Source: an uncultured Eubacteriales bacterium
Lineage (GTDB): Bacteria; Actinomycetota; Coriobacteriia; Anaerosomatales; JAAXUF01
Direction: 5' to 3'
Length of the DNA stretch: 64,000 bases
Assembly (NCBI GenBank): GCA_964541375.1
Contig: CAZIPT010000002.1
Span: 445 to 64,444 of the forward strand
This document shows positions 19,650 to 40,894 of the stretch, piece after piece. The number at the start of each line of letters is the position of its first letter. Position 1 is the stretch's first letter. The notes beneath the pieces were generated by a model. The model searched no databases and was not told the DNA's origin. It saw nothing but the letters and a program-made list of their open reading frames with translations. A program made the position numbers and the translations under genes.

Positions 19650-19720
19650 CGGTGGGGTTCTTGCCACCCCGCGCTGAGTACCGTTGGAACCGGCCACTTC
19701 ACAAGGAAAGGAACCGCCGC

Positions 19721-20725
19721 GTGCCGAGCTTCAGGCAGATACGACCTCTCGACGCCGTGATCGTGGTCGTTGCTGTGCTCGTGGTGTTGGTCGGTGGCTA
19801 CCTGGGGTACTCGGTGTGGGCACAGAACAAGAGGATTCGAGATGCCTCGCCTTCGACTCGCGAAATCGCATCACTGACGGCGAAACTGCGCGCGAACCCC
19901 AACAACTTCGACACGCGCATGCGTCTGGCGCAAGCCTTCGCTGTGGCGGGTCGTGATGACGAGGCCATCGGGCAGTACAAGGCGATTCTCAAAGTCAACC
20001 CGAGCTTTGTTCCGGCGCTCTCGGGCGTGGGATTTGAGTATCTCAAGCAGAAGAAGTGGAAGGAGGGGGAGGGCTACTTCCGCAAAGTCGTCTCCCTCAC
20101 CGAGAAGGACACGACCAGCGTCGGTTCGAGTCCGCTGGAAACGGCCTACTTCTACTTGGGGATCGCTCTGATGGAACAACGGAAGTACGAAGAGGCCGTC
20201 GGTTTCTTGAAGGGGGCGCTCCGGCTGCGCCGCGACTCGGCGGACGCCAGCTACGCTCTTGCTGTGAGCTATCGAGAGCTCGGAATCATGGACGGCTACG
20301 AGGAGTATCTCCTCTACACGCTGAAGTTCGACCCCAACATGGCCGAGGCCAACTACGACTACGGCATGCTGCTGCTGTCCAAGAAGGACCTGGCCTCGGC
20401 GGCAGAGTACTTCAGGCGCTCGGTCCACGCTGCGCCCGGCGTCGACAAGCCGCAGATCGAACTCGACAAGCTCGGCAACTTTGATGATCGTCTCGCTGAG
20501 GCCAAGAAGCTCAAGCCGACCGACCCCGCAAAGGCGCTGGTCGAGGCGCGGATCGCTTCTGCGCTCGATCCGCAGTCGGTCGAGGCGCTTGCGCTTGTCG
20601 GGGAGCTCTACGAGGCCACCGGCCAGCGCGACAAGGCGGCCGAGGCCTACCGAGAGGTCCTGGTGCTTGAGCCCGGCAACGCATTGGCGACTGAAGGGTT
20701 GAAGCGGGTGTCCAATGGATCCTAG
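19721..20725 (+). CDS. Membrane-anchored TPR-repeat protein
   Basis: GTG start with AAGGAAAGGAA upstream. There is one N-terminal TM helix (AVIVVVAVLVVLVGGYLGY), then several TPR-like units (AEANYDYGMLLLSKKDLASAAEYFRRSV, etc.). Confidence 0.75.
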   Translation: MPSFRQIRPLDAVIVVVAVLVVLVGGYLGYSVWAQNKRIRDASPSTREIASLTAKLRANPNNFDTRMRLAQAFAVAGRDDEAIGQYKAILKVNPSFVPALSGVGFEYLKQKKWKEGEGYFRKVVSLTEKDTTSVGSSPLETAYFYLGIALMEQRKYEEAVGFLKGALRLRRDSADASYALAVSYRELGIMDGYEEYLLYTLKFDPNMAEANYDYGMLLLSKKDLASAAEYFRRSVHAAPGVDKPQIELDKLGNFDDRLAEAKKLKPTDPAKALVEARIASALDPQSVEALALVGELYEATGQRDKAAEAYREVLVLEPGNALATEGLKRVSNGS

Positions 20726-22301
20726 TCAGATACCGGCTCCGACGGTTCCAGCCGAGGCCCCGGCCGGGTCTGGATTCGGTTCTCGCATTCCACCGTCGCA
20801 GCAGAGGGACCCCAGCAAGCTGACGGGGCCGGAGCGTCGACGGCGCATCGTGCTGCTTACGTTCCTGCTCCTCCTGTTGGCGATCCTCGCCTACGTCGCC
20901 TACTACTACAGTCAGAACAAGCGGCTTCCGTCCCTTGGGGTTGCACCCCCTGGGGCCACGGCGATCACCCCGCCTCAGTTCCTCTTCGCGTTCTCCGGCG
21001 AGGGCGCCAACACGCTCAAGCGCCCCGTCGGCGTCGCTGTCGGCCCTGACGGACGCGTCTACGTCGTCGACTTTGGCAACAAGCGCGTCAGCGTGTTCTC
21101 CAGCCAAGGGCGCTTCCTGTCCTCCTTCGACACGCTTTCCGACGGCAAGAAGCTGACTAACCCGGTTCATCTGGCAATCAAGGGCAACGAGGTTTGGGTC
21201 ACCGACCGCCGGCTGCGGAGCATCAGCATCTTCGACCTCAACGGCAAGTTCCTTCGCACGTTCGAGCCCAAGAACGAGAAGCTGACCTGGACGCCGCTCG
21301 CGCTTGGTTTTGACAACAAGGGTCAGCTTCGCGTCACAGACGTTGGTGACACCAAGAATCACCGCGTCGTCTACTTCTCGGCCGACGGCTCGCGAACAGC
21401 CATGTTTGGGAAGACCGCTCAGGTCACTCGGCCCAGCGATTCCCCGGGTGAGTTCCTGTTCCCCAACGGGGTCGCGGCCGACAAGAAGAACAACATCTAC
21501 ATCTCTGACGGTAACAACCGACGGATTCAGGTGTTCTCTCCGGAGGGCACCTTCAAGAGCTTCATCGACGCAAGCGGAATCCCTCGCGGCATCGCCATAG
21601 ATGATCGCGAGCGCCTGTACGTAGTTGACGCGTTGGCCAACGACGTACGGGTCTTTGGCGTCAAAGGCCAGACCTTGACGCAGTTCGGCTCGCGCGGGTT
21701 CGGGCCGGGTCAATTCAACTACCCGAACGACATCGCGCTTGACGCACGCGGGCGCATCTACGTCACCGACCGAGAGAACAACCAAGTCCAGGTTTGGGGC
21801 TGGCCCGTCGCCGCCCTCCCGGCCATACCGCTGCCGAGCAAGCCGCTGTACTGGCTGCTGTGCCTCTCGCCGCTTCTCCTGTTGCCGCTGCTTGTGCGCA
21901 GGCGCAAGACCCGCATCATCGTCACGCCTGACTTCGTCGACGCTCTCGCCGAGGTGCAGGAGATTGCGGCCGTGGCCGCCAAGTCCCGCCTGCGCCTGAT
22001 CGCGCCCATCGAAGACGAGCCCCTCTATCAGGGTCGTGTCGTGGAGGGCGTTGTGCTGAGCGACCTCATCAGCTTCGAGGAGCACTCTGAGTCCGACGTT
22101 CGCAGCCTCATCGAGAAGCTGCAGGTCACGGAGCGCCAGGCGATTCTGATATCCATGACCTGGAGGGCGAAGGCGCTTGCGACCCAGGATCGGGAGCTGA
22201 GATGGCTGGCGGTGCTCGCTGAAGTCCGAGCGGTGAACGTCGAAGAATTCAGGTCCGTTTATCTGGGTAGGGAAGTCAATAAGGAAAGTGCGACTTTGTA
22301 A
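20715..22301 (+). CDS. NHL-repeat beta-propeller protein flanked by two TM helices, with an unassigned ~150-aa C-terminal tail
   Basis: The ATG overlaps the TPR gene by 11 nt. NHL-type repeats include GVAVGPDGRVYVVDFGNKRVSVFS, GIAIDDRERLYVVDALANDVRVF and DIALDARGRIYVTDRENNQVQVW. TM1 is near aa 45-65 and TM2 is LYWLLCLSPLLLLPLLV. Confidence 0.75.
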   Translation: MDPSQIPAPTVPAEAPAGSGFGSRIPPSQQRDPSKLTGPERRRRIVLLTFLLLLLAILAYVAYYYSQNKRLPSLGVAPPGATAITPPQFLFAFSGEGANTLKRPVGVAVGPDGRVYVVDFGNKRVSVFSSQGRFLSSFDTLSDGKKLTNPVHLAIKGNEVWVTDRRLRSISIFDLNGKFLRTFEPKNEKLTWTPLALGFDNKGQLRVTDVGDTKNHRVVYFSADGSRTAMFGKTAQVTRPSDSPGEFLFPNGVAADKKNNIYISDGNNRRIQVFSPEGTFKSFIDASGIPRGIAIDDRERLYVVDALANDVRVFGVKGQTLTQFGSRGFGPGQFNYPNDIALDARGRIYVTDRENNQVQVWGWPVAALPAIPLPSKPLYWLLCLSPLLLLPLLVRRRKTRIIVTPDFVDALAEVQEIAAVAAKSRLRLIAPIEDEPLYQGRVVEGVVLSDLISFEEHSESDVRSLIEKLQVTERQAILISMTWRAKALATQDRELRWLAVLAEVRAVNVEEFRSVYLGREVNKESATL

Positions 22302-22421
22302 CACTTGCCGCAATCTCCCTTGAGGTGTACGGTACGGATGCGGGGTCTGCGTCTTGCAGGCCAGCTGTCAGGGTCCGGCAACCCGGCGCGAACCGCACTT
22401 GAAATCAGAAGAACAGCGCGA

Positions 22422-22519
22422 TCTCCGAGCCTCTCTGCCTACGGCGCCTCCGGCGCTAGGGCACCCAGGCCGTCGGGTTTCACCGGAAACAGTGGAGCCT
22501 CCCTTCCTTGGAAAGGAGA
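22422..22519 (+). ncRNA. Candidate Moco (molybdenum-cofactor) riboswitch aptamer
   Basis: Conserved blocks as I recall them from the Moco RNA motif and E. coli moaA leader: CUCCGAGCCUCU, GCACCCAGG and GCCUCCC-N6-UGGAAAGGAG. A P1 helix UCUCC(22422-26)/GGAGA(22515-19) is possible. It lies about 275 nt upstream of a molybdoenzyme gene. Confidence 0.6.
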
Positions 22520-22793
22520 ACGCATCCGGCCGGAACGTCCGCTCGCGGGCGATTCCTTTGCGATGCGTTGTTCTTCGGGGTAAGGAGATCGTCAAAATGT
22601 TGTGTTCTCGAACCGGACCACTGTCTGGGCCTCACTTGGCCTTGCGGTGCTTCGGTTCTTCTTTTTGGGGGCTTCCGATCGGCGATCGCAGCGTGAAGGG
22701 AGGGTCGACCTCCTAGCTGCTGGCGTTCCCATCTGCTGCACGACGGAAGCCGCGACTGATCTTCTGCTTCAACTGAGAGAGAGGGATGGAGGA

Positions 22794-25700
22794 ATGGCAA
22801 CTAAAGACACCGGGCAACCGGCCAACGGGATAAGCAGACGCGCGTTTGTGACCTCGGCGGCCGTTGCTGCAACGGCAGCCGGATGCGGGTTCGAAGTCGC
22901 GTTTGACGCCGCTAAGGCACTCGCCTACGAGAGTTCGACAGACTACAAAGTCACAAACACCACGTGTCCCTACTGCTCTGCCAGCTGCGGACAGCGTGTC
23001 GTTACTGCGCTCACCGGCGCGAACGCTGGCAAGGTCGTCGACATCTACGGTGACTTCGAGTCCCCGATGAACTCCGGCGGACTGTGCGCCAAGGGCGCGG
23101 GCTCGCTGCAGCTTGTCAACAACCCGTACCGTATCGGTGCGTGGGAGACCACGCATCCCGTCAATTCCGTGTTCGCCGCCAAGCCGGCCGCCACGACGTT
23201 CGGGGCGAGTCCGACCGGCTGGACCGGGCCGGCGTACACGGGTAGCGGCTACACCTACGGCGGCGGCGTGGCCTACTGGCGTCTCGGCGATGAACCGTGG
23301 AACCCAGTCCCGCTCGACGTCGCAATGGCTGATATCGCTGGCAAGCTCAAGACGGCCCGCGAGTACGACACCGCGCGTTGGGACGAAGCCAACGGCAAGA
23401 CCTTCAATAGCAAGAGCGTTGCGTTCTTCGGTTCGTCTCACATGAACAACGAGATGAACTACGTATACCGCAAGATCATCGCGAACTTCGGTACGAGCAA
23501 CGTCGAGCATCAGGCCCGAATTTGACACAGCTCCACGGTGGCCGGTCTGGCCGCCGCATTCGGTCGCGGTGCAATGACGAACCATTGGCAGGACATCGCC
23601 AACTCGACCCTGGTAGTTGTGTGGGGAGCCAACCCGTCTGAGAACCATCCGGCGTGCATGGCCCACATAAACCGGGCGAGGTATCCCAAGCAGTTCTTTG
23701 CGAGCAGCGACGCCAGGTCGAGCAAGCAGGCCGCCCGGATGATCGTGATCGATCCGCGGAAGAACCGCACCGCCCAGCAGGCTGATGACTACGTACGCAT
23801 CCGCCCTGGGACGGACATCGCGTTCCAGAACGGTGTGATCAAGTACATCATCGACCAGATGGAGTCTGGGACGAGCGTCTCGACGGCTGCCAAGACCGCG
23901 TTCTTCGCCTATCTCAACCAGACTGGGAACGGCACTTTCTACACGGACGGCAGCGCGTCTCTCCAGAGCAAGACCTCGGCGACCGTCGCCGGTAGCGCGA
24001 AGTACACCGACGCGCGGTTCTTGGTCAACGGCACCGACACGGACTATGTCCGCGGGTCAGTGAACACCCTTGGGGCAGTCGCCACCACGGAGACCGCGGA
24101 GAACACGATCTCGAACTTCCCCACCAAGTCCACCAACTGCCAGACCGGCAATACGGTGTACAACCGCCTCAAGGCGCACGTCGCGCCGTACACGACGGCC
24201 AAGGTAGTCGAGATATGCGAATGCGCCGACACCGATATCTCACTGGTGGGCGACGCGATCATTGCCAACAGCCGTTGCTCGAGCGTGGGCAAGGCCTTCG
24301 TGGATAAGAAGATGAAGGTCCGCTTCACACAGACGGCCGGTTTCCAGAATGGTGCGGCCACCACAGCGCAGGACGCCATACCGCTGTGGGCATCGGGCGT
24401 CACGGTCTCAAGTGTGACCAGCCTCGATGGCCTGACAAACTACTCGAATGGGACCGACTATACCTTCGCGGCAACCGGGACCATCACGCGCGTGGCGACG
24501 GGGACGATTCTCGACAAGCAGGTGTGTCTTGTCACGTACTCCGGTACCACGGACCAGGCACCGCAGGACACCTACCGTGCGACGACGATTCTCTACGCGA
24601 TGGGCATCACGCAGCACACCTGCGGCTCCCAGAACGTCAAGGGCTTCGCCAACCTGCAGGGGCTCATGGGCAACAATGGACGCGCTGGCGGTGGCATCAA
24701 TGCGCTGCGTGGCATCCACAACGTTCAGGGCTCGACCGACATGGGCCTGCTTTACGGCAACATCCCCGGTTACTCGAACAATCCGTCCGAGCAGCCGGCG
24801 GAGGTCGTGACGCTGACTGGGACTACGGCGGTTGCCCTGCAGTGGAAGAACTACGACAACACCGCGGTCACTATCACGGCCGTGCAGTCGGATGCGTCCG
24901 TGATCTACGCGGCCACCGACTACGACCTCGTAGTAAACGGTAGCGGGTACACGACGATCGCTCGGAGCGCCACGTCCACCATTGCTGACGGCGCCACCGT
25001 CTACGTGAGCTACACCCACGCGATATCGGCCACGGCAGCCGGCCCGGCAAAGGTCTACAACGCTTTTGGCCGCTACGTGAATGCGCTGTGGGGCCTGCCA
25101 GTGCACGGTACCGCCGGACGTTCTCAGATGAACCTCAGCTACGACGATGCTTACACCACTACTGGTGGCATCATGCAGCTGCAGCAGCGTGGCTTCTACA
25201 ACATGACGCTGAAGTGGTTCGGTGACTACGCGACGTACGGGACCGCCGCGCTCAGCAGCGCCAAGAGGACCGCAATCGACGCGACGTACGGGCTGTGGCC
25301 AAAGGGCAACGGCGACAACCACATCAAGATGTTCCGCAACATGGCCTCCGGCAGCGTGAAGGCCGCGGTCGTGTGGGGACAGAACCCCGCCGTCACCGAG
25401 CCCAACCAGAGCAAGATCCGCGACGGGCTACACGAGCTCGACCTTCTGGTGGTTGCCGACATGTTCGAGACGGAGACCGCCGGGTGTGGCCGCAAGGCTA
25501 CCGGCGTCACGTATCTCCTCCCGGCTGCCTCGCATGTGGAGAAGGCCGGTTCGGCGACGAACTCCGGTCGAGTCCTGCAGTGGCGCTACAAGGCGATCGA
25601 TCCGGTCGGCAACTCCAAGGACGACCTTGAGTTGCTCCTCCGCTTCGCGCGCGCACTCAACGACGCCCACTGCTTCAAGCACATCGAGACCGCCAATGGC

Positions 25701-27011
25701 TGGACCGCCGACACGGCCTACACCAAGCTCTACGCCACCCCTTACGGCTGGGACCCCAAGGCGACCATCGCCAGCGTCGGGAACTCGACCGACTTCAAGC
25801 TGGCCGGCAACCTGTCGAGTGCCGCGATCGACTTCGCGACAGTTGGCGTGACGGTCGGGGACGGCACCACCTATGCGTCGCTCGTTCCCTCCGCAGACAC
25901 CAGGGTCAACGGTGCAGAGTTCGTCGCCGAGATGATCTTCCGCGAGTGGGCGGCCGGCAATGGCAGCACGGGTGCGGGCATCTACACGACGCCCAACGGC
26001 ACGACGACTTCGGGCGGCACGCTCTGGATCTACGTCGAGGGATACGATCAGTCCGGCAAGACCGGGCGTCTCTATCCCGAGTACACTGACTGGGGAGTGT
26101 TCAACCGTTCCAAGAGCCGCGATCGCCAGGATCCGTACGGCGTGCTTGCCACCCACAAGTGGGGCTACTGCTGGCTCGTCAATCGTCGCGTGTTCTACAA
26201 CAACAACGAGATCGCCGGCGACCAGCCGGACTTCTTCATGAGTCCCGACTCGTGCACGCGCCTCTTCGCGCCCGATGTCACGCAGCCCGCATGGACTCCC
26301 ACGGGCAGCACGATCTACAACTACGCGCGTTGGTACCGGACGATCGGCGCTCCCACCAAGCACGTGCTTGCAGACAAGCCGCTCTTCAGTAACGGTTTGA
26401 AGCCGAGCGTCCACGTCGTCCCCGGACGGTTCCCGTCTCACGTGGAGCCCTACGAGACGCCGTCGCCCGCGATCGCCGATGACCCGACCAACGGGTTCGG
26501 CTACAACTCCACACTCGACACCGCCATCAATGCGGTCGGAGCCAGGAACCTCCTGTACTCGGGCTCAGCGGTCGGCACGTCGAGCACGTACCCGCTCGTT
26601 CTGACTACCGTCCGGTGTGTGGAGCACTTCCAGGGTGGCCCGATCACCCGTAACAACTGGTTCAACGTCGAGCTCGAGCCGCAGCCGTGGATCGAGATCA
26701 ACTCGGCGGACGCACGTATTGCAGGAATCAAGGACGGCAACATGGTACGAGTCGTCACTGCCCGTGTTGCCGACAATGCCGGCAACTTCGTGAGTCCGGC
26801 CAACTACGGCCAGGGGTTCATCGCACGTGTCGGCAGTGGTCTCTCCGCAGGTCAGAAGGTCGCCGCCGGCGTCGTTGCGATTCCGTGGCACTGGGGAGAG
26901 AAGGGTCTTTCGACCGGCTCCCGCGCCAACGACCTCACCATCGACGCGATGGACGCGAACACCACGATTCCAGAGTTCAAGGCCTGTCTTTGCCGCATCG
27001 AGAAGATATAG
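22794..27011 (+). CDS. Tat-exported Mo/W-bis-MGD oxidoreductase catalytic subunit, FdnG-like formate dehydrogenase, with selenocysteine encoded by the in-frame TGA at 23523-23525
   Basis: Twin-arginine signal GISRRAFVTSAAVAATAAG. N-terminal Fe-S motif CPYCSASCGQ...GGLCAKG. ORFs 22602-23525 and 23538-27011 are in the same frame and are separated only by a TGA. The junction reads EHQARI-U-HSSTVAGLAAAFGRGAMTNHW, close to E. coli FdnG NQARVUHGPTVASLAPTFGRGAMTNHW. The conserved ALRGIHNVQG Arg is present. The gene has 1405 codons. Confidence 0.85.
23523..23555 (+). promoter_or_regulatory. UGA-Sec recoding site with SECIS hairpin
   Basis: UGA CAC AGC UCC ACG GUGGCC GGUCU GGCCGCC. The stem is 7 bp (one G-U pair). 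The apical GGUC begins 19 nt after the UGA, the same loop sequence and spacing as I recall for E. coli fdhF (UGA CAC GGC CCA UCG GUU GCA GGUC UGC). Confidence 0.8.
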
Positions 27012-27024
27012 GGAGGTGTGACCG

Positions 27025-27990
27025 ATGACTGTTATGGCAATCCTGCAAGACGTCGACAAGTGCATGAGATGCAACGGGTGCGTAACGGCCTGCAAGCGTG
27101 AGTGGAACCTCAAGCTGCCGACCGATATCTCCCAAGTGATCCCGCAGAAGTCAATCGTCAACCCGCGTCAGCGCCTCGCTATCAAGAGCCTGCGGCGCGG
27201 AGACATGGGACCGCACATGAGGTTTTCGTGTTGGCACTGCCCTGATGCCCCGTGCATCAAGGAGTGTCCGCGCGGTGCGATCAAGCAAGAGGCAACCGGT
27301 GCCGTCAGTGTGAACACCGGGCTGTGCGCACCGACTCTCTGCAAGGCGGGCCCCGGCCCCAGGCCTTGTGAGATCGGCTGCCAGCAGGGTGGGTATCCCA
27401 AGGTGGGTCCTGCCTACGAGACCGGTCAGTATGCCGGTCAGGTCAAGATGAACAAGTGCACGCTCTGTACCGGTCGCGCCGGAGCCGACGGTGTCGTAGA
27501 CGCCGCCACCGCTCTGCCGACCAGGTCGACCAGAGTCCAGACTTCGGTCGATCCCGCTCCCAAGACGTACGTCTGGCCGAGTCCTTTGGTGCTCCCGAGT
27601 GGCGGAACGCTGACCGATGTCAACGTCCCTGAACTCGCCCACGAGCCGGCGTGCGTCTCGTCGTGCCCCGCGAAGGCCATGAAGTGGGACTCCAAGGCCA
27701 ACATCCTGAAGTACCTGCAGGACCCGGCCAACGGATACACCCTGGCCGGCGGCACGCAGAACTGGATCGGCAACGGCGGCGTCTACTGGGCGTCGAGGAA
27801 CACCAGGATTGTTCCGCCGAAGGCCGACCCGTTCGTCGAAGATCACCTCACGCCCATGGTGAGCAGCGTGGTTTCAGGAGGCAGCAAGCTCATGATTCCG
27901 GCTCTGCTGCTCGGCGGTTTCGCAGTGGTCTCCATGCGGCGCACCAAGGTTCAGGCCGAAGCCAACGATCTGTCAGCAAGGGAGGTGTAG
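27025..27990 (+). CDS. FdnH-like 4Fe-4S cluster subunit with a C-terminal TM anchor
   Basis: GGGAGGTG lies upstream. Ferredoxin motifs are CMRCNGCVTAC, CWHCPDAPCIKECP, CTLCTGR and CVSSCP. The C-terminal helix is LMIPALLLGGFAVVSM. Confidence 0.85.
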   Translation: MTVMAILQDVDKCMRCNGCVTACKREWNLKLPTDISQVIPQKSIVNPRQRLAIKSLRRGDMGPHMRFSCWHCPDAPCIKECPRGAIKQEATGAVSVNTGLCAPTLCKAGPGPRPCEIGCQQGGYPKVGPAYETGQYAGQVKMNKCTLCTGRAGADGVVDAATALPTRSTRVQTSVDPAPKTYVWPSPLVLPSGGTLTDVNVPELAHEPACVSSCPAKAMKWDSKANILKYLQDPANGYTLAGGTQNWIGNGGVYWASRNTRIVPPKADPFVEDHLTPMVSSVVSGGSKLMIPALLLGGFAVVSMRRTKVQAEANDLSAREV

Positions 27991-27996
27991 GACCGC

Positions 27997-29280
27997 ATGA
28001 AAGCTTCACGACTCTTCTTCGCAACTGTCCTCGTCGCCCTTGCCGCACTGGCATTGCCGACGGCCGCGTTCGCGAACTTCGCGATTCACGGCAACTATCT
28101 GAAGGACACCGATGCGTGTGCCGGTTGTCACCGCGCACACACGTCAGTCAGCACCATCGGCTGGACCGATGCCAATAACAATCAGCACTCTTCAGCTCTG
28201 CTGGTGACATCTGCAACTGAGATGTGGCAGTTCTGCTACGCCTGCCACGACGCTACGAGCCAGGGTGCCGATACCAACGTTCAGCAGGGTATCTGGGAAG
28301 GCGACTCAACCTACGGGACTCCCGGCGGTCTTCTCAACGGCGGCGGTTTCGACTCGCTCGCCGAGACGGCCACAACGTCGACGCACATGTACAAGGGCTC
28401 TTCGTGGGGCGCGTACGGCGGAGGTTACGCCGGTAACACCAAGGCGCAGAACTACGGTATAGCCGCCGACGGCAGCACGGCTGGGCAGGGCGCCAACGCG
28501 TTCATGACCGGCACCGGCAACTCCATCAAGATGGATTGCGCCAGCTGTCACGACCCGCACGGGAGCGCGAACTACCGCATCCTGAAGGCCGTCGTCAACG
28601 GCAATCCTGTCGGTGGCTATGGTCCAGGCAACGGACCGGGCGGGGCGCAGGATCCCAACCCCAACGGTTTCGTCTCTTCTGTCGAGACCGGCTGGCCTGT
28701 TAACGGCTTCCGACTCCACACGCAGTATCCCGAGTACAAGCCGAACTACACGACCCCCATGTACGCCAGAGGCTACGACATGGGAACCTTGACCACCGCC
28801 ACTGCGGGACCCACCAACGTGGACAAGGGCATGAGCGGTTGGTGCGCTGGTTGTCACAGCACGTATCTGGGACAGCTGTCCGGCGTTCCGGCTAGCTTCG
28901 CCACAACGTACAACGCTGGTGACGGCGGCGGCCTCGCAGTTCGTCACAAGCACCCGATCAACGTGCCTCTGACCAACTACGAAGGCCCGGACGCGGCCAA
29001 CATGGTCAAGGACAGCTCATCTGGCCTGCCTTTGGCTCATGGCAAGAACGAGCAGGGTAACCCAGTTACCAACGAGGACGACTGGATCGAGTGTCTGACC
29101 TGCCACCGTGCCCACGGTACGGCAGCTTCGATGAGCGGCTGGGCATCCAATGCCGGAGCCGCATCAGTCGTAGGTACTGACGGGCTTGCCTCCAACAAGT
29201 TTGTTGCGGCCGGCGCCGTTCCGTCAGCACTGCTTCGCTATGACAACCGTGGCGTCTGCGAAAGGTGCCACAACAAGTAG
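27997..29280 (+). CDS. Secreted hexahaem c-type cytochrome
   Basis: GGGAGGTG lies upstream. It has a Sec signal peptide and six CxxCH motifs (CAGCH, CYACH, CASCH, CAGCH, CLTCH, CERCH). Confidence 0.85.
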   Translation: MKASRLFFATVLVALAALALPTAAFANFAIHGNYLKDTDACAGCHRAHTSVSTIGWTDANNNQHSSALLVTSATEMWQFCYACHDATSQGADTNVQQGIWEGDSTYGTPGGLLNGGGFDSLAETATTSTHMYKGSSWGAYGGGYAGNTKAQNYGIAADGSTAGQGANAFMTGTGNSIKMDCASCHDPHGSANYRILKAVVNGNPVGGYGPGNGPGGAQDPNPNGFVSSVETGWPVNGFRLHTQYPEYKPNYTTPMYARGYDMGTLTTATAGPTNVDKGMSGWCAGCHSTYLGQLSGVPASFATTYNAGDGGGLAVRHKHPINVPLTNYEGPDAANMVKDSSSGLPLAHGKNEQGNPVTNEDDWIECLTCHRAHGTAASMSGWASNAGAASVVGTDGLASNKFVAAGAVPSALLRYDNRGVCERCHNK

Positions 29281-29393: not shown

Positions 29394-30833
29394 GTGAACG
29401 CTCGTCTCGTCACTGCAGCGGTGTTCTCGGCCGCCGTGCTGAGCACCCTCTCGTCGTTCCTCGTGACGACGGTCGCCATGGACTCGCTTCCCGACGCCGT
29501 GCTTGTGGGTGTCAGCACGGTCGTCGCGTTCCTGGTCGTCGTCACAGCGGGAGGCTGGCGGGTCGCCGAGCAGATCCGTGGCCTGGAGCGGACGACACTC
29601 GCGCTCGCACTTGTTGGAGGGGCGCTGACCTTGTGGGCGGCCCCCTTCCTCGCTCTGTCCCAGCGTGCAACAAGCGCCCCCTCGGGCGCTGACTCGCTCT
29701 TCTTCACCACGACCCTCTGGAGCGTTCTGGTGGTGTTCGGCGCGTATGTGATCCGGACCCAGCGCCCCGCTCTGACCGCTATCGCCGGCGCCGTGTGCGC
29801 GGCAGCGGGTGCCATGGGGCTGCTCGCGAGCTGGGAGTATCCGAGTTCGTTCGCACCGTTCGCGAAGTTTCCTGTCCGAGAGTCACTCATGTTGGTCGCC
29901 GGAGTCCTTTTCGCGGTCGGCATGCTGGCCCTTACTGAGGCCGCGCGAAGGATCGGTGCTCGCTACGCGGCGACGTTGGGTCTGGGCGGGGCTGCGGTGC
30001 TCGGCACGCTCGCCTGCCTGCCGAGGCTTCCTGCGGTAGTCTCGGCAGGTGTCTCGGCGTGGAGGCCCAGCATCTATCTCGGCGTGATCACGGCCGTGTT
30101 TGCGGTGAGCTTGCTGTGGACGGCCGCTCAGGTGGGAGCCGCACGTGCCTCAGCAGCGCTGCTGTTGGTTGCTCCCGCGATGACGGCGTTATCGGCGTAC
30201 GAGCAGGCCACCTCGGTCTACGGAGTGCTGCCGTTCGCCATGCGTGGGGTGTTGACGGGTTCGGCGATCGTGGTGGTCGGAGCGGCTGTCCTCTGGCTGT
30301 CTGAGCTCGACAGGAAGCCGTCTCGTGCACTCCGTGACAGGGTCACCGCAGCTGCTCTGTGGGTTGCGGTCGGGTCGTGCGCGCTTGCGGCCGTCTCACT
30401 GGTCACTCCGGCGCTCGACGCGCTGTCGGAGGGCCACATAACCGCGACCTTCCGCGCGGCGTGGGTGATGCTCGGCTACGAATCGGCCGCCGGCTGGATG
30501 CCGGTCGCGGCAGCGCTGCTGGCACTCGCGGCCGTACTCGAGGCCCGCCGCGGGCAGGAGGCGCGCGCCTGGGTCGCGGCGTCTGCGGCGGTGTTCGCCT
30601 GCGCGCTCGCGATGACGCTTCTCTCGGCGACGACGATCCACACCTGGAATAGCTGGGTCCCAGCCGAGGTCCAGCAGACATACGGCACGGAGTATGCTCG
30701 CTTGTCGGTATCGGCCATCGTCGATCCCGTGAGGGTAGGAGCGATGGCGCTCGCTGTTGTCTCGGCAGGTCTGCTCGGGCTGTCTGCCGCTCAGGACGCC
30801 AGAACCGCTCGTTCAACGGAAGCAGGTTCGTGA
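29394..30833 (+). CDS. Polytopic integral membrane protein (about 12 or more hydrophobic segments), unassigned
   Basis: GTG start with GAAGGAG 5 nt upstream (alternative ATG at 29370). The composition is Ala/Leu/Val-rich. There are only two His residues, so it is not an FdnI-type dihaem cytochrome b. Confidence 0.6.
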   Translation: MNARLVTAAVFSAAVLSTLSSFLVTTVAMDSLPDAVLVGVSTVVAFLVVVTAGGWRVAEQIRGLERTTLALALVGGALTLWAAPFLALSQRATSAPSGADSLFFTTTLWSVLVVFGAYVIRTQRPALTAIAGAVCAAAGAMGLLASWEYPSSFAPFAKFPVRESLMLVAGVLFAVGMLALTEAARRIGARYAATLGLGGAAVLGTLACLPRLPAVVSAGVSAWRPSIYLGVITAVFAVSLLWTAAQVGAARASAALLLVAPAMTALSAYEQATSVYGVLPFAMRGVLTGSAIVVVGAAVLWLSELDRKPSRALRDRVTAAALWVAVGSCALAAVSLVTPALDALSEGHITATFRAAWVMLGYESAAGWMPVAAALLALAAVLEARRGQEARAWVAASAAVFACALAMTLLSATTIHTWNSWVPAEVQQTYGTEYARLSVSAIVDPVRVGAMALAVVSAGLLGLSAAQDARTARSTEAGS

Positions 30834-31684
30834 TGAGGTCCAGTCACGCGATGAAGGTCTCGCTGGCGCTCACCTTGGTGCTGCTCACGACCTTGTCGGC
30901 GACAGGCTGTCAGCGCAAGGTCGAGGTCCAGTCCGGTACGCGCACCGTGTGCACCTCGGGAGAGGTCATTTCCGACAACGTCACGACCATCAAGGTGCCC
31001 GCGAACAAAGCTGGCGCCTACCGAGTGAACACCGTTGTGGTGACGTGCGACAAACATGCGAAGGCGCCGACGCTCTACGCGGAGGCCCAGACCGCGCTGG
31101 CTGCCGGCGACACGAAGCTCGCCGCATCCAAGCTCGCCCAGGTCCTTGCGCTCGATCCGACGTACCGCAAAGCCAAAGAGCAGGCCGCTTCGATCGCCAA
31201 GGGCGGCAAGCCAGCGCCTGACACGACGCCCGCCCCCAGTGCTCCGACCACCGTGACAACGCCGATCACGCCTCCCAAGCCTGGTGAGGATCCAGGGACC
31301 GTCGGCGCGCTGGGAAAGTGGACGCCCGACACTATCACGGGTTTTGCGGCGGGCAAGGTGCTGTCGGATGCGCTGACCGTGTCTCGCGAGTACGTCCCAA
31401 CGGGCTCCTCGCCAACCAAAGGACTGGTGATCGTAGCCGAGCAGTTCCGCACCGCTGCAGACGCGAAGCGCGGTGTAGAGCAGCAGGTCAAACGGACCCA
31501 TGGCAAGGACGCGGCGACGCTCAGTGTCAACGGGCACGACGCGTACTTTGGGACCGATGGCCGACGGTTCGCGGCGATCGGCTTCACCGACGGCGCGGTG
31601 ATGGTCGCACTCGAGCTGACCACGGACAAGTCGCCCCAGAACCTACGCTCACTCGCCGAGCAGGTCGCCAAGCAGCTGCCCTAG
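30830..31684 (+). CDS. Lipoprotein with a TPR-like helix pair, a Pro/Thr linker and an unassigned C-terminal domain
   Basis: The start (GTG 30830 or ATG 30833) overlaps the upstream TGA. Lipobox LSATGC. Confidence 0.6.
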   Translation: MMRSSHAMKVSLALTLVLLTTLSATGCQRKVEVQSGTRTVCTSGEVISDNVTTIKVPANKAGAYRVNTVVVTCDKHAKAPTLYAEAQTALAAGDTKLAASKLAQVLALDPTYRKAKEQAASIAKGGKPAPDTTPAPSAPTTVTTPITPPKPGEDPGTVGALGKWTPDTITGFAAGKVLSDALTVSREYVPTGSSPTKGLVIVAEQFRTAADAKRGVEQQVKRTHGKDAATLSVNGHDAYFGTDGRRFAAIGFTDGAVMVALELTTDKSPQNLRSLAEQVAKQLP

Positions 31685-31729: not shown

Positions 31730-32923
31730 CTAGCAGCTACCCGGTACCGAGCACGGCGCCGAGCGCTGGAACTCAGGCGTGGCTTCGAGGTGCGCGACGA
31801 GTTCGCTGCGGTCCGTCTCGGCGTGGAGCAGGCACGTGACGTCCTCGGCCATCGGATCGCCGGTGCGCTGCCAAGCCTTGGCGCGGCACCCGCGGCAGAT
31901 GCGCGAGTACTCGCACGCCTCCGGAGAGCACACTCCCTCGGACTCCTGCTGGTCGAGTTCGTAGAGCTCGCAGACCGCGTCCTGCAGAGAAGTCTCGCGG
32001 ACGTTGCCGATAGTCCAGTCCTGGGCGAACTGGCAGGGCATGATGCCGCCCTCGGAGTTTATGTTCATATGGCCCTTGCCCACCGGGCACGCCGAGATGG
32101 TCTTGAGGCGCTCGAGGCCGTTGGAGACGTCGACGCCGCGCGCGGTGAGCTGCTCGGCCACGTAGGGGATGAAGCTCGGCATCGCGCCGATGTCCCACTC
32201 CATCGTGGACTCCTCGGAGAGGATGTCGTCGATGATGAAGTCGCCCAGCTCGCGCCACTGCTCGGGCGTGATGCGGCCGTCGTCCTCGCCCTCGCTTCGG
32301 CCGGCGGTGATGAGGTCGCAGAAGTAGAGTAGGCCGACGTCAAGCTCCTTGGCCTCGGCGATGAGGTCGTAGATGTACGGCCAGGTGTCCTTGCTGATCG
32401 CGGTCTTGATGGCGACATTGACGCCCTCTTCGCGCAGCACCTTGATGGCCTCGATGACGCGGTCGCGGGTGCCGGGTACCCGGACCATCGCGTCGTGGAA
32501 ATCGGCGGGGCCGTAGAGCGAGGTGGCGATCCAGTCGATGCCTGCAGCACGCAGGCGCTTGGCGGCTGCGCGGTCCATCATCGTGCAGTTGGTCGAAACC
32601 GTGACGCGGATGTCGAGCTCGCGTGCAAGCTCGAGGATCTCCCAGAAGTTCGAGCGCATCATCGGCTCGCCTCCCGAGAGGAACAGTGCAGGCAGGCCGC
32701 GCTCGCCCATCTGGCGCACGAGGGCGATGGTCTCCTCATTGGTGAGCTCGTCGGGTCGAGTGTGGCCGTCGGCGGCCATGTAGCAGTGGTCGCAGAGGAG
32801 GTTGCAGCGGTTGGTTATGTTCCAGATGACGTCGCTGGGGCGGCCCAGCTTGTACGCCTTCACCGCGCGGTTCTCGACCGTGTCGAGCGGACCCTTGAAG
32901 AACAGTGACCGGACGTGTGCCAT
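31730..32923 (-). CDS. Radical SAM / SPASM-domain protein (AhbD/NirJ-like or other maturase)
   Basis: CNLLCDHC radical-SAM cluster motif and the SGGEP motif. The C-terminal Cys-rich SPASM region is CPVGKGHMNINSEGGIMPCQF...CSPEACEYSRICRGCRAKAW. GGAGG lies upstream of the chosen ATG. The ORF track extends to 33001. Confidence 0.8.
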   Translation of the reverse strand: MAHVRSLFFKGPLDTVENRAVKAYKLGRPSDVIWNITNRCNLLCDHCYMAADGHTRPDELTNEETIALVRQMGERGLPALFLSGGEPMMRSNFWEILELARELDIRVTVSTNCTMMDRAAAKRLRAAGIDWIATSLYGPADFHDAMVRVPGTRDRVIEAIKVLREEGVNVAIKTAISKDTWPYIYDLIAEAKELDVGLLYFCDLITAGRSEGEDDGRITPEQWRELGDFIIDDILSEESTMEWDIGAMPSFIPYVAEQLTARGVDVSNGLERLKTISACPVGKGHMNINSEGGIMPCQFAQDWTIGNVRETSLQDAVCELYELDQQESEGVCSPEACEYSRICRGCRAKAWQRTGDPMAEDVTCLLHAETDRSELVAHLEATPEFQRSAPCSVPGSC

Positions 32924-33108
32924 ACGAGTGCCTCCTACGTTCGGGCACCACCGTTTCGGCGCCCCCATGAGTGTTCGCGCACCATAGTATGCAACCCACA
33001 AGCCATGGGTGCGAGTTGTAACTATTGTTGCTGAAAGAGACTGAAGTCACTTCAGGTCGAGCTGCGACGGCACGGGCTCGGCGTGCGGGTACACTGGATG
33101 CAAAGGAG

Positions 33109-40370: not shown

Positions 40371-40894
40371 GCGGGGGAATTGCACTGAGTGGGCAAGCAG
40401 CATTTCAATCATCCTGTCGGTCTCTGAGACGCAACGAACCCGGTCCCTCTGGCGCACTTACGCCGTCAGGGCCAGGTCCGAAATCTCAGAGCCAGCAGTC
40501 CTACGGCAACCCGGCTGTCATGGGGAGTCCGTGAGGATTCCCTTTAGACCCGTGGCTTTGCGAAGCCGGCTTTCACCGGCGGTGCCTTTGTCACTAAGAG
40601 GAGAGTCGCTGCTTTTCTCTTTTCAACGCACCTATCTATTCGGCAGAAAAGGGCTCCGACTTGAGGCGCCGGCGAGGCGCGATGGTTGCCGTCTTGTGAG
40701 ATACGTCACAGAGAGACACGCTCGGCGCCGTTGTCTTTCGCAATCCGGAGCGTTTGCGCAGGTGCGCAGCGAAGGCGGCCGTTCACCACAAGCCACGGCG
40801 CGGTGAGGTGCGCTCGTAGCGCGCCTCAGGCATTGACTAGGTGCGTGACGACAAAGCATGGCTTTCGAGCTGGGGGCGAGCGGTGCCGACCTGT

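Follow-up and report, generated by a model that had tools for sequence, protein, structure and literature searches.

In a 64,000-nucleotide (nt) stretch of contig CAZIPT010000002.1 from an uncultured bacterium of the Anaerosomatales (class Coriobacteriia), hereafter the window, we find that a TGA codon at positions 23523-23525 of the forward strand very probably encodes selenocysteine (Sec) within a single gene of the formate dehydrogenase (FDH) type, fdhA (22794-27011). FDHs are the commonest bacterial selenoproteins, and a Sec-containing FDH with its selenocysteine insertion sequence (SECIS) inside the coding region is the textbook archetype of bacterial selenoproteins. The mechanism is a known one to which this case adds nothing new, and Coriobacteriia are already known users of Sec. 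What makes the locus worth recording is a clade-wide mis-annotation, the near-miss of curated models, a cytochrome-linked gene cluster headed by a tungsten-type riboswitch and the variable beta-rich insertions of the enzyme.

An earlier note on this DNA had placed two open reading frames (ORFs) in one frame around the TGA, and had read them as one selenoprotein gene of FDH type that automatic gene callers would split or truncate. Its coordinates were exact: the TGA closes ORF 22602-23525, and ORF 23538-27011 continues in the same frame. Translation through the codon yields a continuous frame with a single internal TGA from 22794 to 27011, which is one gene of 1405 codons with the TGA as codon 244. 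The ATG at 22794, with GGAGG just 5' of it, is the likely start. The product begins MATKDTGQPANGISRRAFV, a twin-arginine (Tat) signal with the motif SRRAFV, and its further key sites are a Cys motif for a [4Fe-4S] cluster, the pair Sec244-His245 and Arg639. To see how this gene is represented in public data, we carried out a protein search, which returned 359 homologues at E <= 1e-20, and inspected the start sites of the best 120. About 113 of these start at a gene-caller restart just after the TGA (MTNHW or equivalent), as does the database protein of the source contig itself (P0001), which begins MTNHW. Gene callers therefore truncate both fdhA and about 113 of its 120 best homologues, much as the earlier note had expected.

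Conservation of the codon was examined in a genome scan, using one genome per GTDB species, that yielded 74 loci. Almost all are labelled as metagenome-assembled genomes (MAGs) of Coriobacteriia/Actinomycetota, with Coriobacteriaceae sp. EMTCatB1 and an Anaerosomatales MAG among them. The region is contained in 68 loci, which contribute 69 sites, making 70 codons together with the window. TGA is found at every one of the 70, with TAA, TAG or a sense codon at none. From the TGA to the next possible start, the encoded amino acids are preserved (H in 70/70, followed by S, S, T and V), with switches between the TCG and AGC serine codons occurring among them. Full-length relatives with Cys at this position are rare: P0012 and P0016 read EHQARICHSTTV, Cys is likewise present in P0119 and P0120, and TGC stands at the Sec codon in the DNA of P0012 (locus L075). 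The in-frame UGA is in this way aligned with Cys or Sec of its homologues, and the Sec/Cys alternation among orthologues that had been proposed as a check is seen, with 69 TGA sites set against Cys in P0012 and P0016. As a separate observation, the UGA is preceded by an Ile codon that is ATT in the window (23520-23522) and the rare ATA in 57 of 69 relatives. Since CAC follows in 70/70, the nucleotide 3' of the UGA is invariably C; this conserved local context may tune recoding versus termination.

These data bear on the possibility that UGA is decoded here as a standard amino acid, either through a reassigned code (UGA = Trp) or through SECIS-independent read-through. A precedent exists within the class Coriobacteriia, where UGA-to-Trp reassignment occurs in one Eggerthellaceae clade (PMC13462651, a 2026 report), whose genomes have 31-40% GC and mostly UAA stops (PMC13462651). 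The window has 64% GC, and the stops of its 31 Pfam-supported ORFs are TGA in 8, TAG in 21 and TAA in 2; since TGA ends 8 of these 31 ORFs, UGA is an ordinary stop and the standard code applies here. Homologues, in addition, align Sec or Cys at the position and never Trp. The Trp reading was rejected because stop-codon usage, GC content and the residue aligned at this position all speak against it. Plain read-through would not account for the conserved hairpin, whose GGUC loop is of the SelB type and lies at the canonical distance from the UGA, and we find decoding as any standard amino acid very hard to credit.

Counting the U of the UGA as nt 1, the 53 nt from the TGA onwards fold into an 8-bp stem running from C14-G34 to C21-G27, with the loop GGUCU at nt 22-26 (dG -21.8 kcal/mol). 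The 7-bp hairpin of the earlier note is present with one further C-G pair, and the GGUC, said there to start 19 nt after the UGA, indeed occupies the 19th to 22nd nt after it. We place a candidate bacterial SECIS (bSECIS) at 23528-23568 of the forward strand, on the evidence of the fold, pair counts, codon entropy, the Rfam SECIS_3 model and bSECIS criteria. Its upper hairpin, backed by the fold and by covariation, spans 23536-23556 with the loop at 23544-23548, and a weaker lower helix, seen in pair counts, joins nt 6-12 with nt 40-46. Published criteria for bSECIS elements specify a loop of 3-9 nt, an upper stem 4-16 bp long, G within the first two nt of the loop, a UGA-loop spacing of 16-37 nt and a minimum free energy (MFE) of at most -7.5 kcal/mol (PMC13188914). 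The element here has the 5-nt loop GGUCU, an 8-bp stem, a spacing of 18 nt and an MFE of -21.8, all within these limits.

Comparison across loci shows how this hairpin has been maintained. Among 35 non-identical sequences from the AGLAAA subgroup, pairing in the upper helix reaches 97%; nt 18 and 30 form G-C in 30, C-G in 4 and U-A in 1, so that each change is compensated, and both positions are synonymous third positions (Val GTN and Ala GCN). The lower helix (nt 6-12/40-46) is 83% paired in the same sequences, with U-A/A-U exchanges. The covariation score is 0.082, versus 0.032 in shuffles (0 of 500 reach 0.082) and at most 0.036 when the register is slid. Synonymous variation is almost absent over the hairpin (Ala GCC 69/69, Gly GGT 70/70), where codon entropy is about 0, compared with 1.1-1.7 bits at invariant Gly/Ala codons elsewhere in the gene. 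A second subgroup (L032-L074, alignment A5) has L-GRT in place of the peptide L-AAA at the positions corresponding to window 23544-23560, yet its RNA still carries the arm GGCCGC, read with a shift of 1 nt (CTG GCC GCC GCA becomes CTT GGC CGC ACA); the RNA is therefore more conserved than the protein, with selection on the RNA overriding that on the protein. In the Cys variant P0012/L075 the hairpin is degraded, with GGT replaced by GGG and an MFE of -17.0 versus -19.9 to -30.7 in the 69 Sec loci.

With this evidence in place, the TGA can be considered as a true stop, which would separate two polypeptides of a split enzyme, mark a pseudogene or reflect a sequencing error. Gene callers treat the window and most of its relatives in this way, and the energy of the hairpin, taken alone, is unremarkable. 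However, the same TGA stands at 69/69 orthologous sites in 68 loci from independent assemblies; the 12-45 nt that separate it from the candidate restarts encode conserved amino acids; no Shine-Dalgarno sequence precedes GTG 23538 or ATG 23571; and a split would remove an active-site metal ligand. Neither synonymous-site constraint nor compensatory pairs are expected of a pseudogene. We therefore regard a true stop as highly improbable, and continue with the TGA as a Sec codon.

To which known type the element belongs was judged with covariance models. Rfam SECIS_3 (RF01989), whose consensus translates as V-U-HGPTVASLAPTFGRGAMT and is of the FdnG type, matches 23520-23578 over its full length (model positions 1-59) with 61.2 bits (E 2e-14). 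SECIS_2 (RF01988), the fdhF type, gives 17.3 bits (E 0.47) against a threshold of 70. The earlier label of an fdhF-like SECIS holds for the letters and the position of the GGUC: E. coli fdhF has GGUCUG at the same nt 22-27, in agreement with the loop and spacing given there, and the fdhF SECIS sequence used for this comparison matched fdhF in 5419 E. coli genomes at 100%. The label does not extend further, as the covariance models place the element nearer to the FdnG type, and it appears closer to this than to the fdhF type.

Read through the TGA, the fused product has the domain architecture of an FDH catalytic subunit with a Tat signal, comprising Pfam Molybdop_Fe4S4 (PF04879), Molybdopterin (PF00384) and Molydop_binding (PF01568); PF10518 is recorded on homologue P0012. 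Its sequence matches in the PDB are the Sec- and tungsten (W)-containing FDH of D. vulgaris (E 8e-96), the W-FDH of D. gigas (E 9e-88) and E. coli FDH-N (E 2.5e-83). The alignment to solved FDHs is collinear across the TGA, with a stretch EHQARI-[Sec]-HS(S/P)TV that is almost identical to that of D. vulgaris FdhA. Here U244-H245 aligns with U192-H193 of D. vulgaris FdhA, and the catalytic Arg is kept in GGG(I/V)NALRG..NVQGSTD, R639 being equivalent to R441 of D. vulgaris. Across 41 relatives, neither the Sec/Cys-His pair nor this Arg varies. The alignment of the TGA with the Sec-His active site of FDHs, as earlier proposed, was thus borne out in comparisons with both the D. vulgaris and the E. 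coli enzyme, the Arg of the ALRG motif included. Provided that the match to FDH-N continues at its ungapped offset, the TGA corresponds to FdnG residue 196, which we take to be its Sec residue.

An AlphaFold2 (AF2) model of the C-terminal 1145 amino acids (predicted local distance difference test score, pLDDT, 77; predicted template modelling score, pTM, 0.83) was compared with solved structures using Foldseek. E. coli FDH-N (1kqf) ranked first (E 2e-31), followed at ranks 2-24 by 22 chains of the D. vulgaris and D. gigas W-FDHs together with Shewanella FdhA, with Nap appearing only afterwards; the closest structural match is therefore the FDH fold, to which all of the top 24 hits belong. On the continuous frame, the Pfam domains, the PDB matches and the AF2/Foldseek results, we annotate 22794-27011 of the forward strand as fdhA, encoding a predicted Tat-exported catalytic subunit of an FDH with a molybdenum (Mo)/W bis-pyranopterin guanine dinucleotide cofactor, in which the UGA at 23523-23525, aligned with the FDH Sec/Cys position, is read as Sec residue 244, a ligand of the metal.

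FdhA is about 400 residues longer than the solved FDHs. Two all-beta insertions of about 80 residues each lie in surface loops, at window positions ~24276-24590 and ~24786-25090 (residues ~495-600 and ~665-765 of the fused protein). Among 67 relatives, the flanked segments of the window protein are the longest at both sites, with 107 residues versus a median of 28 at the first, and 103 versus 23 at the second. Other relatives have insertions of up to 338-381 residues in other FdhA loops, so the insertions are lineage-variable as well as beta-rich; PF27730 is an insertion domain recorded on some homologues. We do not claim the two window insertions as repeats of each other, their similarity being weak (E 6e-4 over 32 residues).

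Several results weigh against a Sec-encoding FDH gene and have to be set beside the evidence above. The energy of the hairpin alone is unexceptional in DNA of 64% GC (z = -0.9, with 33/200 shuffles folding equally well); since folding energy is uninformative in GC-rich coding DNA, the significance of the hairpin rests on comparison. In the window itself, the lower helix falls short of the family consensus in strength. The SECIS_3 score lies just under the gathering threshold of 63 bits, which is why a default Rfam scan missed the element, and the same model gives 46.5, 46.5 and 36.3 bits on relatives, and no match at E <= 0.001 in L038. The element would work like SECIS_3 and is evidently related to it, yet it lies outside the curated boundary. 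At the protein level, the equivalog model for FDH-N alpha (TIGR01553) scores 458 bits versus a cut-off of 814, and that for actinobacterial FDH (NF041513) 393 versus 1400 bits; FdhA is thus not filed as an FdnG equivalog and is a divergent branch of the FDH catalytic-subunit family. Because the protein falls below the FDH-N alpha equivalog cut-off, we only infer formate oxidation or CO2 reduction, from the active-site motifs. Finally, ARAGORN identified no tRNA in the 64-kb window, a Pfam scan of about 50 window ORFs revealed no SelA, SelB or SelD, and the 74 related loci likewise contained no selA/B/D or tRNA-Sec (ARAGORN for tRNA-Sec). Within the same class, tRNA-Sec and selB are reported from most Eggerthellaceae (PMC13462651), and by analogy with these the organism would presumably possess the Sec machinery.

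The same scores raise the question of whether FdhA might be a selenoprotein of the FDH fold that acts on a substrate other than formate/CO2, for instance an oxidoreductase wired to cytochromes for metal or sulfur respiration. Its scores below the NCBIfam FDH equivalog cut-offs would fit this, as would the ~400 extra residues in variable insertions and the unusual partners encoded beside it, a hexahaem cytochrome and a protein of DMT fold with no quinone-reducing subunit. Moreover, the authors of a study of Anaerosomatales were unsure whether similar complexes are FDHs or Phs/Psr-like (PMC9686372). Against this, the active-site stretch and the GGGINALRG...NVQGSTD motif are nearly identical to those of D. 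vulgaris FdhA, the top 24 structural matches are all FDHs and rank ahead of Nap, and Sec-His-Arg is the established FDH catalytic triad. In culture, Anaerosomatales relatives oxidise formate and grow on it (PMC9686372). A different substrate is unlikely on balance, and we favour an FDH.

Sec insertion at codon 244 can be envisaged by analogy with the established bacterial pathway. As a ribosome nears the UGA, SelB-GTP-Sec-tRNA(Sec) would bind the mRNA hairpin that begins 13 nt downstream and bring Sec to the A site in competition with release factor 2 (RF2), after which translation would run on through the remaining 1161 codons. The twin-arginine product would be exported folded and loaded with its cofactor, probably together with the membrane-anchored four-cluster iron-sulfur (FeS) subunit encoded next. 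Sec244, His245 and Arg639 would then form the formate/CO2 site, from which electrons may pass via four FeS clusters to the co-encoded hexahaem cytochrome c. A P3-less riboswitch and the W-FDH relatives point towards W as the metal, but as no more than a hint. It is speculation that the DMT-fold protein takes part in formate transport, and any roles for the TPR, NHL and lipoprotein genes of the cluster are equally speculative.

That riboswitch lies in the fdhA leader, at 22411-22535 of the forward strand, and is a Moco/Tuco (Mo or W cofactor) aptamer (RF01055; 65.1 bits versus a cut-off of 36), whose alignment shows the P3 stem to be deleted in the window copy. P3-less forms of this riboswitch correlate with tungsten-cofactor metabolism (Regulski et al. 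2008, PMC2408646). The RF01055 aptamer was found upstream of fdhA in 10/10 related loci tested. Directly 3' of it in the window, at 22536-22551, is a short hairpin followed by a T-rich tail. Further upstream on the same strand are genes for two membrane-anchored proteins, each identified by its Pfam domain and transmembrane (TM) segments: a TPR protein (19652-20725), present upstream of fdhA in 60/74 loci, and an NHL beta-propeller protein (20715-22301), directly upstream in 69/74. Their synteny with fdhA suggests a functional link.

Four genes follow fdhA, all on the forward strand. The first (27025-27990) encodes an fdhB-like four-cluster ferredoxin subunit (Pfam Fer4_7 and Fer4_11) with 16 Cys, a hydrophobic C-terminal segment that forms the predicted membrane anchor, and weak NCBIfam similarity to HybA, DmsB and FDH-beta; it is found after fdhA in 69/74 loci. 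The second (27997-29280) encodes a secreted hexahaem c-type cytochrome with a signal peptide, six CxxCH motifs and the Pfam families Paired_CXXCH_1 and Cytochrome_C7. The cytochrome is kept in 70/74 loci, and a sequence search returned no relative for it in the PDB. The third (29394-30833), next to the cytochrome gene in 65/74 loci, encodes a polytopic membrane protein with about 12 TM segments, for which neither a Pfam family nor a PDB sequence match was found. Its AF2 model (pLDDT 89, pTM 0.90) has a DMT-transporter fold, to which it adds an extra C-terminal beta-hairpin and helices; Foldseek matched it to YddG (5i20), LicB (7paf, TMt 0.79) and nucleotide-sugar transporters. This fold ruled out an NrfD/PsrC-like or cytochrome-b quinone subunit as the identity of the protein, and as it is the only polytopic protein of the cluster, the FdnI dihaem cytochrome b or NrfD-type subunit of an FdnGHI-type complex is missing from the cluster. 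The last conserved gene (30830-31684; kept in 55/74 loci) encodes a predicted lipoprotein, with a signal peptide and a Cys lipobox.

The order of these seven genes is shared by 55-70 of the 74 loci. We tentatively suggest, as a possibility somewhat short of an even chance, that it constitutes a Coriobacteriia-specific module, with fdhA at its core and a tungsten-type riboswitch in front of fdhA, producing an obligately Sec-dependent cell-surface FDH that is wired to c-type cytochromes and not to a quinone-reducing subunit. As far as we found, no earlier description of such a module exists. If the proposal is true, the module would couple formate oxidation to extracellular electron acceptors in monoderm subsurface Actinobacteria; in reverse, cathodic or mineral electrons would drive CO2 reduction, and the lineage-variable beta-domain insertions of FdhA would serve surface attachment or partner docking.

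The phylogenetic signal is not uniform across the cluster. By flanking genes, the closest locus is L063, with 74-83% identity in the TPR, NHL, FeS, cytochrome, DMT and lipoprotein products, yet its FdhA is only 35-50% identical to that of the window. For FdhA itself, the best match to the window is L002 (60-62%), a locus with more distant flanks. This discordance suggests a possible swap of the catalytic subunit or of a paralogue. In addition, L019 has two fdhA copies in one locus, and L063 contains frameshifts typical of long-read assemblies.

Convergent to the fdhA cluster and right after it, at 31730-33001 of the reverse strand, lies a gene for a radical SAM/SPASM protein that could be a maturase; it is 93% identical in L063 and is not conserved in the other loci. 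Elsewhere in the window, a c-di-GMP-I riboswitch (40502-40596, reverse strand, 71.7 bits) heads minus-strand genes for an ORF without a Pfam family, a Big_9/cadherin-like protein and a DUF4012 protein. Beside it is a large exopolysaccharide cluster (36178-63027 region) with glycosyltransferases, a Wzz/tyrosine-kinase-like protein, a flippase, an acyltransferase, a DegT aminotransferase and Bac_transf. Two tandem genes at 697-2632 of the forward strand encode two DUF7282 domains each. Many long ORFs opposite real genes are artefacts of the GC-rich sequence, for example 20511-22313 on the reverse strand, opposite the NHL gene.

The practical consequence concerns annotation. Many uncultured Coriobacteriia and OPB41-like Actinobacteria probably have this enzyme as their main formate dehydrogenase, yet its catalytic subunit is split or truncated in public records, and metabolic reconstructions therefore under-call formate metabolism and the need for selenium in these organisms of subsurface, peat, groundwater and bioelectrochemical settings. 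The mis-annotation arises because the thresholds of Rfam SECIS_3 and the NCBIfam FDH models miss the clade, narrowly or clearly, and these misses show which models to re-tune. Studies of Gram-positive extracellular electron transfer and of microbial CO2-to-formate electrosynthesis could also reasonably take up the conserved cytochrome-linked cluster.

Among described organisms, Coriobacteriaceae sp. EMTCatB1 (locus L060) has the same seven-gene order, TGA and SECIS. Its genes 1c0408, 1c0407 (formate dehydrogenase) and 1c0406 (multihaem cytochrome), whose transcripts ranked in the top 10% on a biocathode that produces methane (PMC7943316), are probably the orthologues, matched to L060 by gene order. 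In Parvivirga hydrogeniphila, a 'Mo formate dehydrogenase' is cited under two consecutive accessions, MCL4079382-3 (PMC9686372); this is a probable orthologue, and the paired accessions fit a gene split at the TGA. Both reports discuss the enzyme of these relatives, and selenocysteine is mentioned in neither (PMC7943316, PMC9686372).

Compared with E. coli FDH-N, the window enzyme shares with FdnG (1kqf) the Tat signal, the Fe4S4 domain, the Sec-His site and an FeS partner with a C-terminal anchor, as well as a SECIS (RF01989) placed directly after the UGA and over the same codons. It differs from FdnG in being about 400 residues longer, through the lineage-variable beta-rich insertions, and in scoring below the TIGR01553 cut-off; the SECIS loop is GGUCU where FdnG has AGUCU, and in place of the FdnI-type dihaem cytochrome b of FdnGHI there are a hexahaem cytochrome c and a DMT-fold protein. 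The window element and the fdhF SECIS of E. coli (RF01988) share the GGUC at nt 22-25, counted from the U of the UGA, over the same V-A-G-L codons. In fdhF, however, U17 is bulged, whereas in the window the corresponding U is paired with G, and the fdhF loop has 4 nt closed by A-U, in place of 5 nt closed by C-G.

The closest solved relative by sequence is the W/Sec enzyme FdhAB of D. vulgaris (6sdr and 8cm4, among other structures), which is likewise Tat-exported and is periplasmic, and the tungsten hint given by the P3-less riboswitch of the window fits this W-FDH. The D. vulgaris enzyme differs in residing in a Gram-negative periplasm, whereas the window derives from a monoderm actinobacterium, in being without the insertions and in having another gene neighbourhood. 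Desulfovibrio FDHs pass their electrons to c-type cytochromes (FdhABC3), as we propose the enzyme encoded in the window may do.

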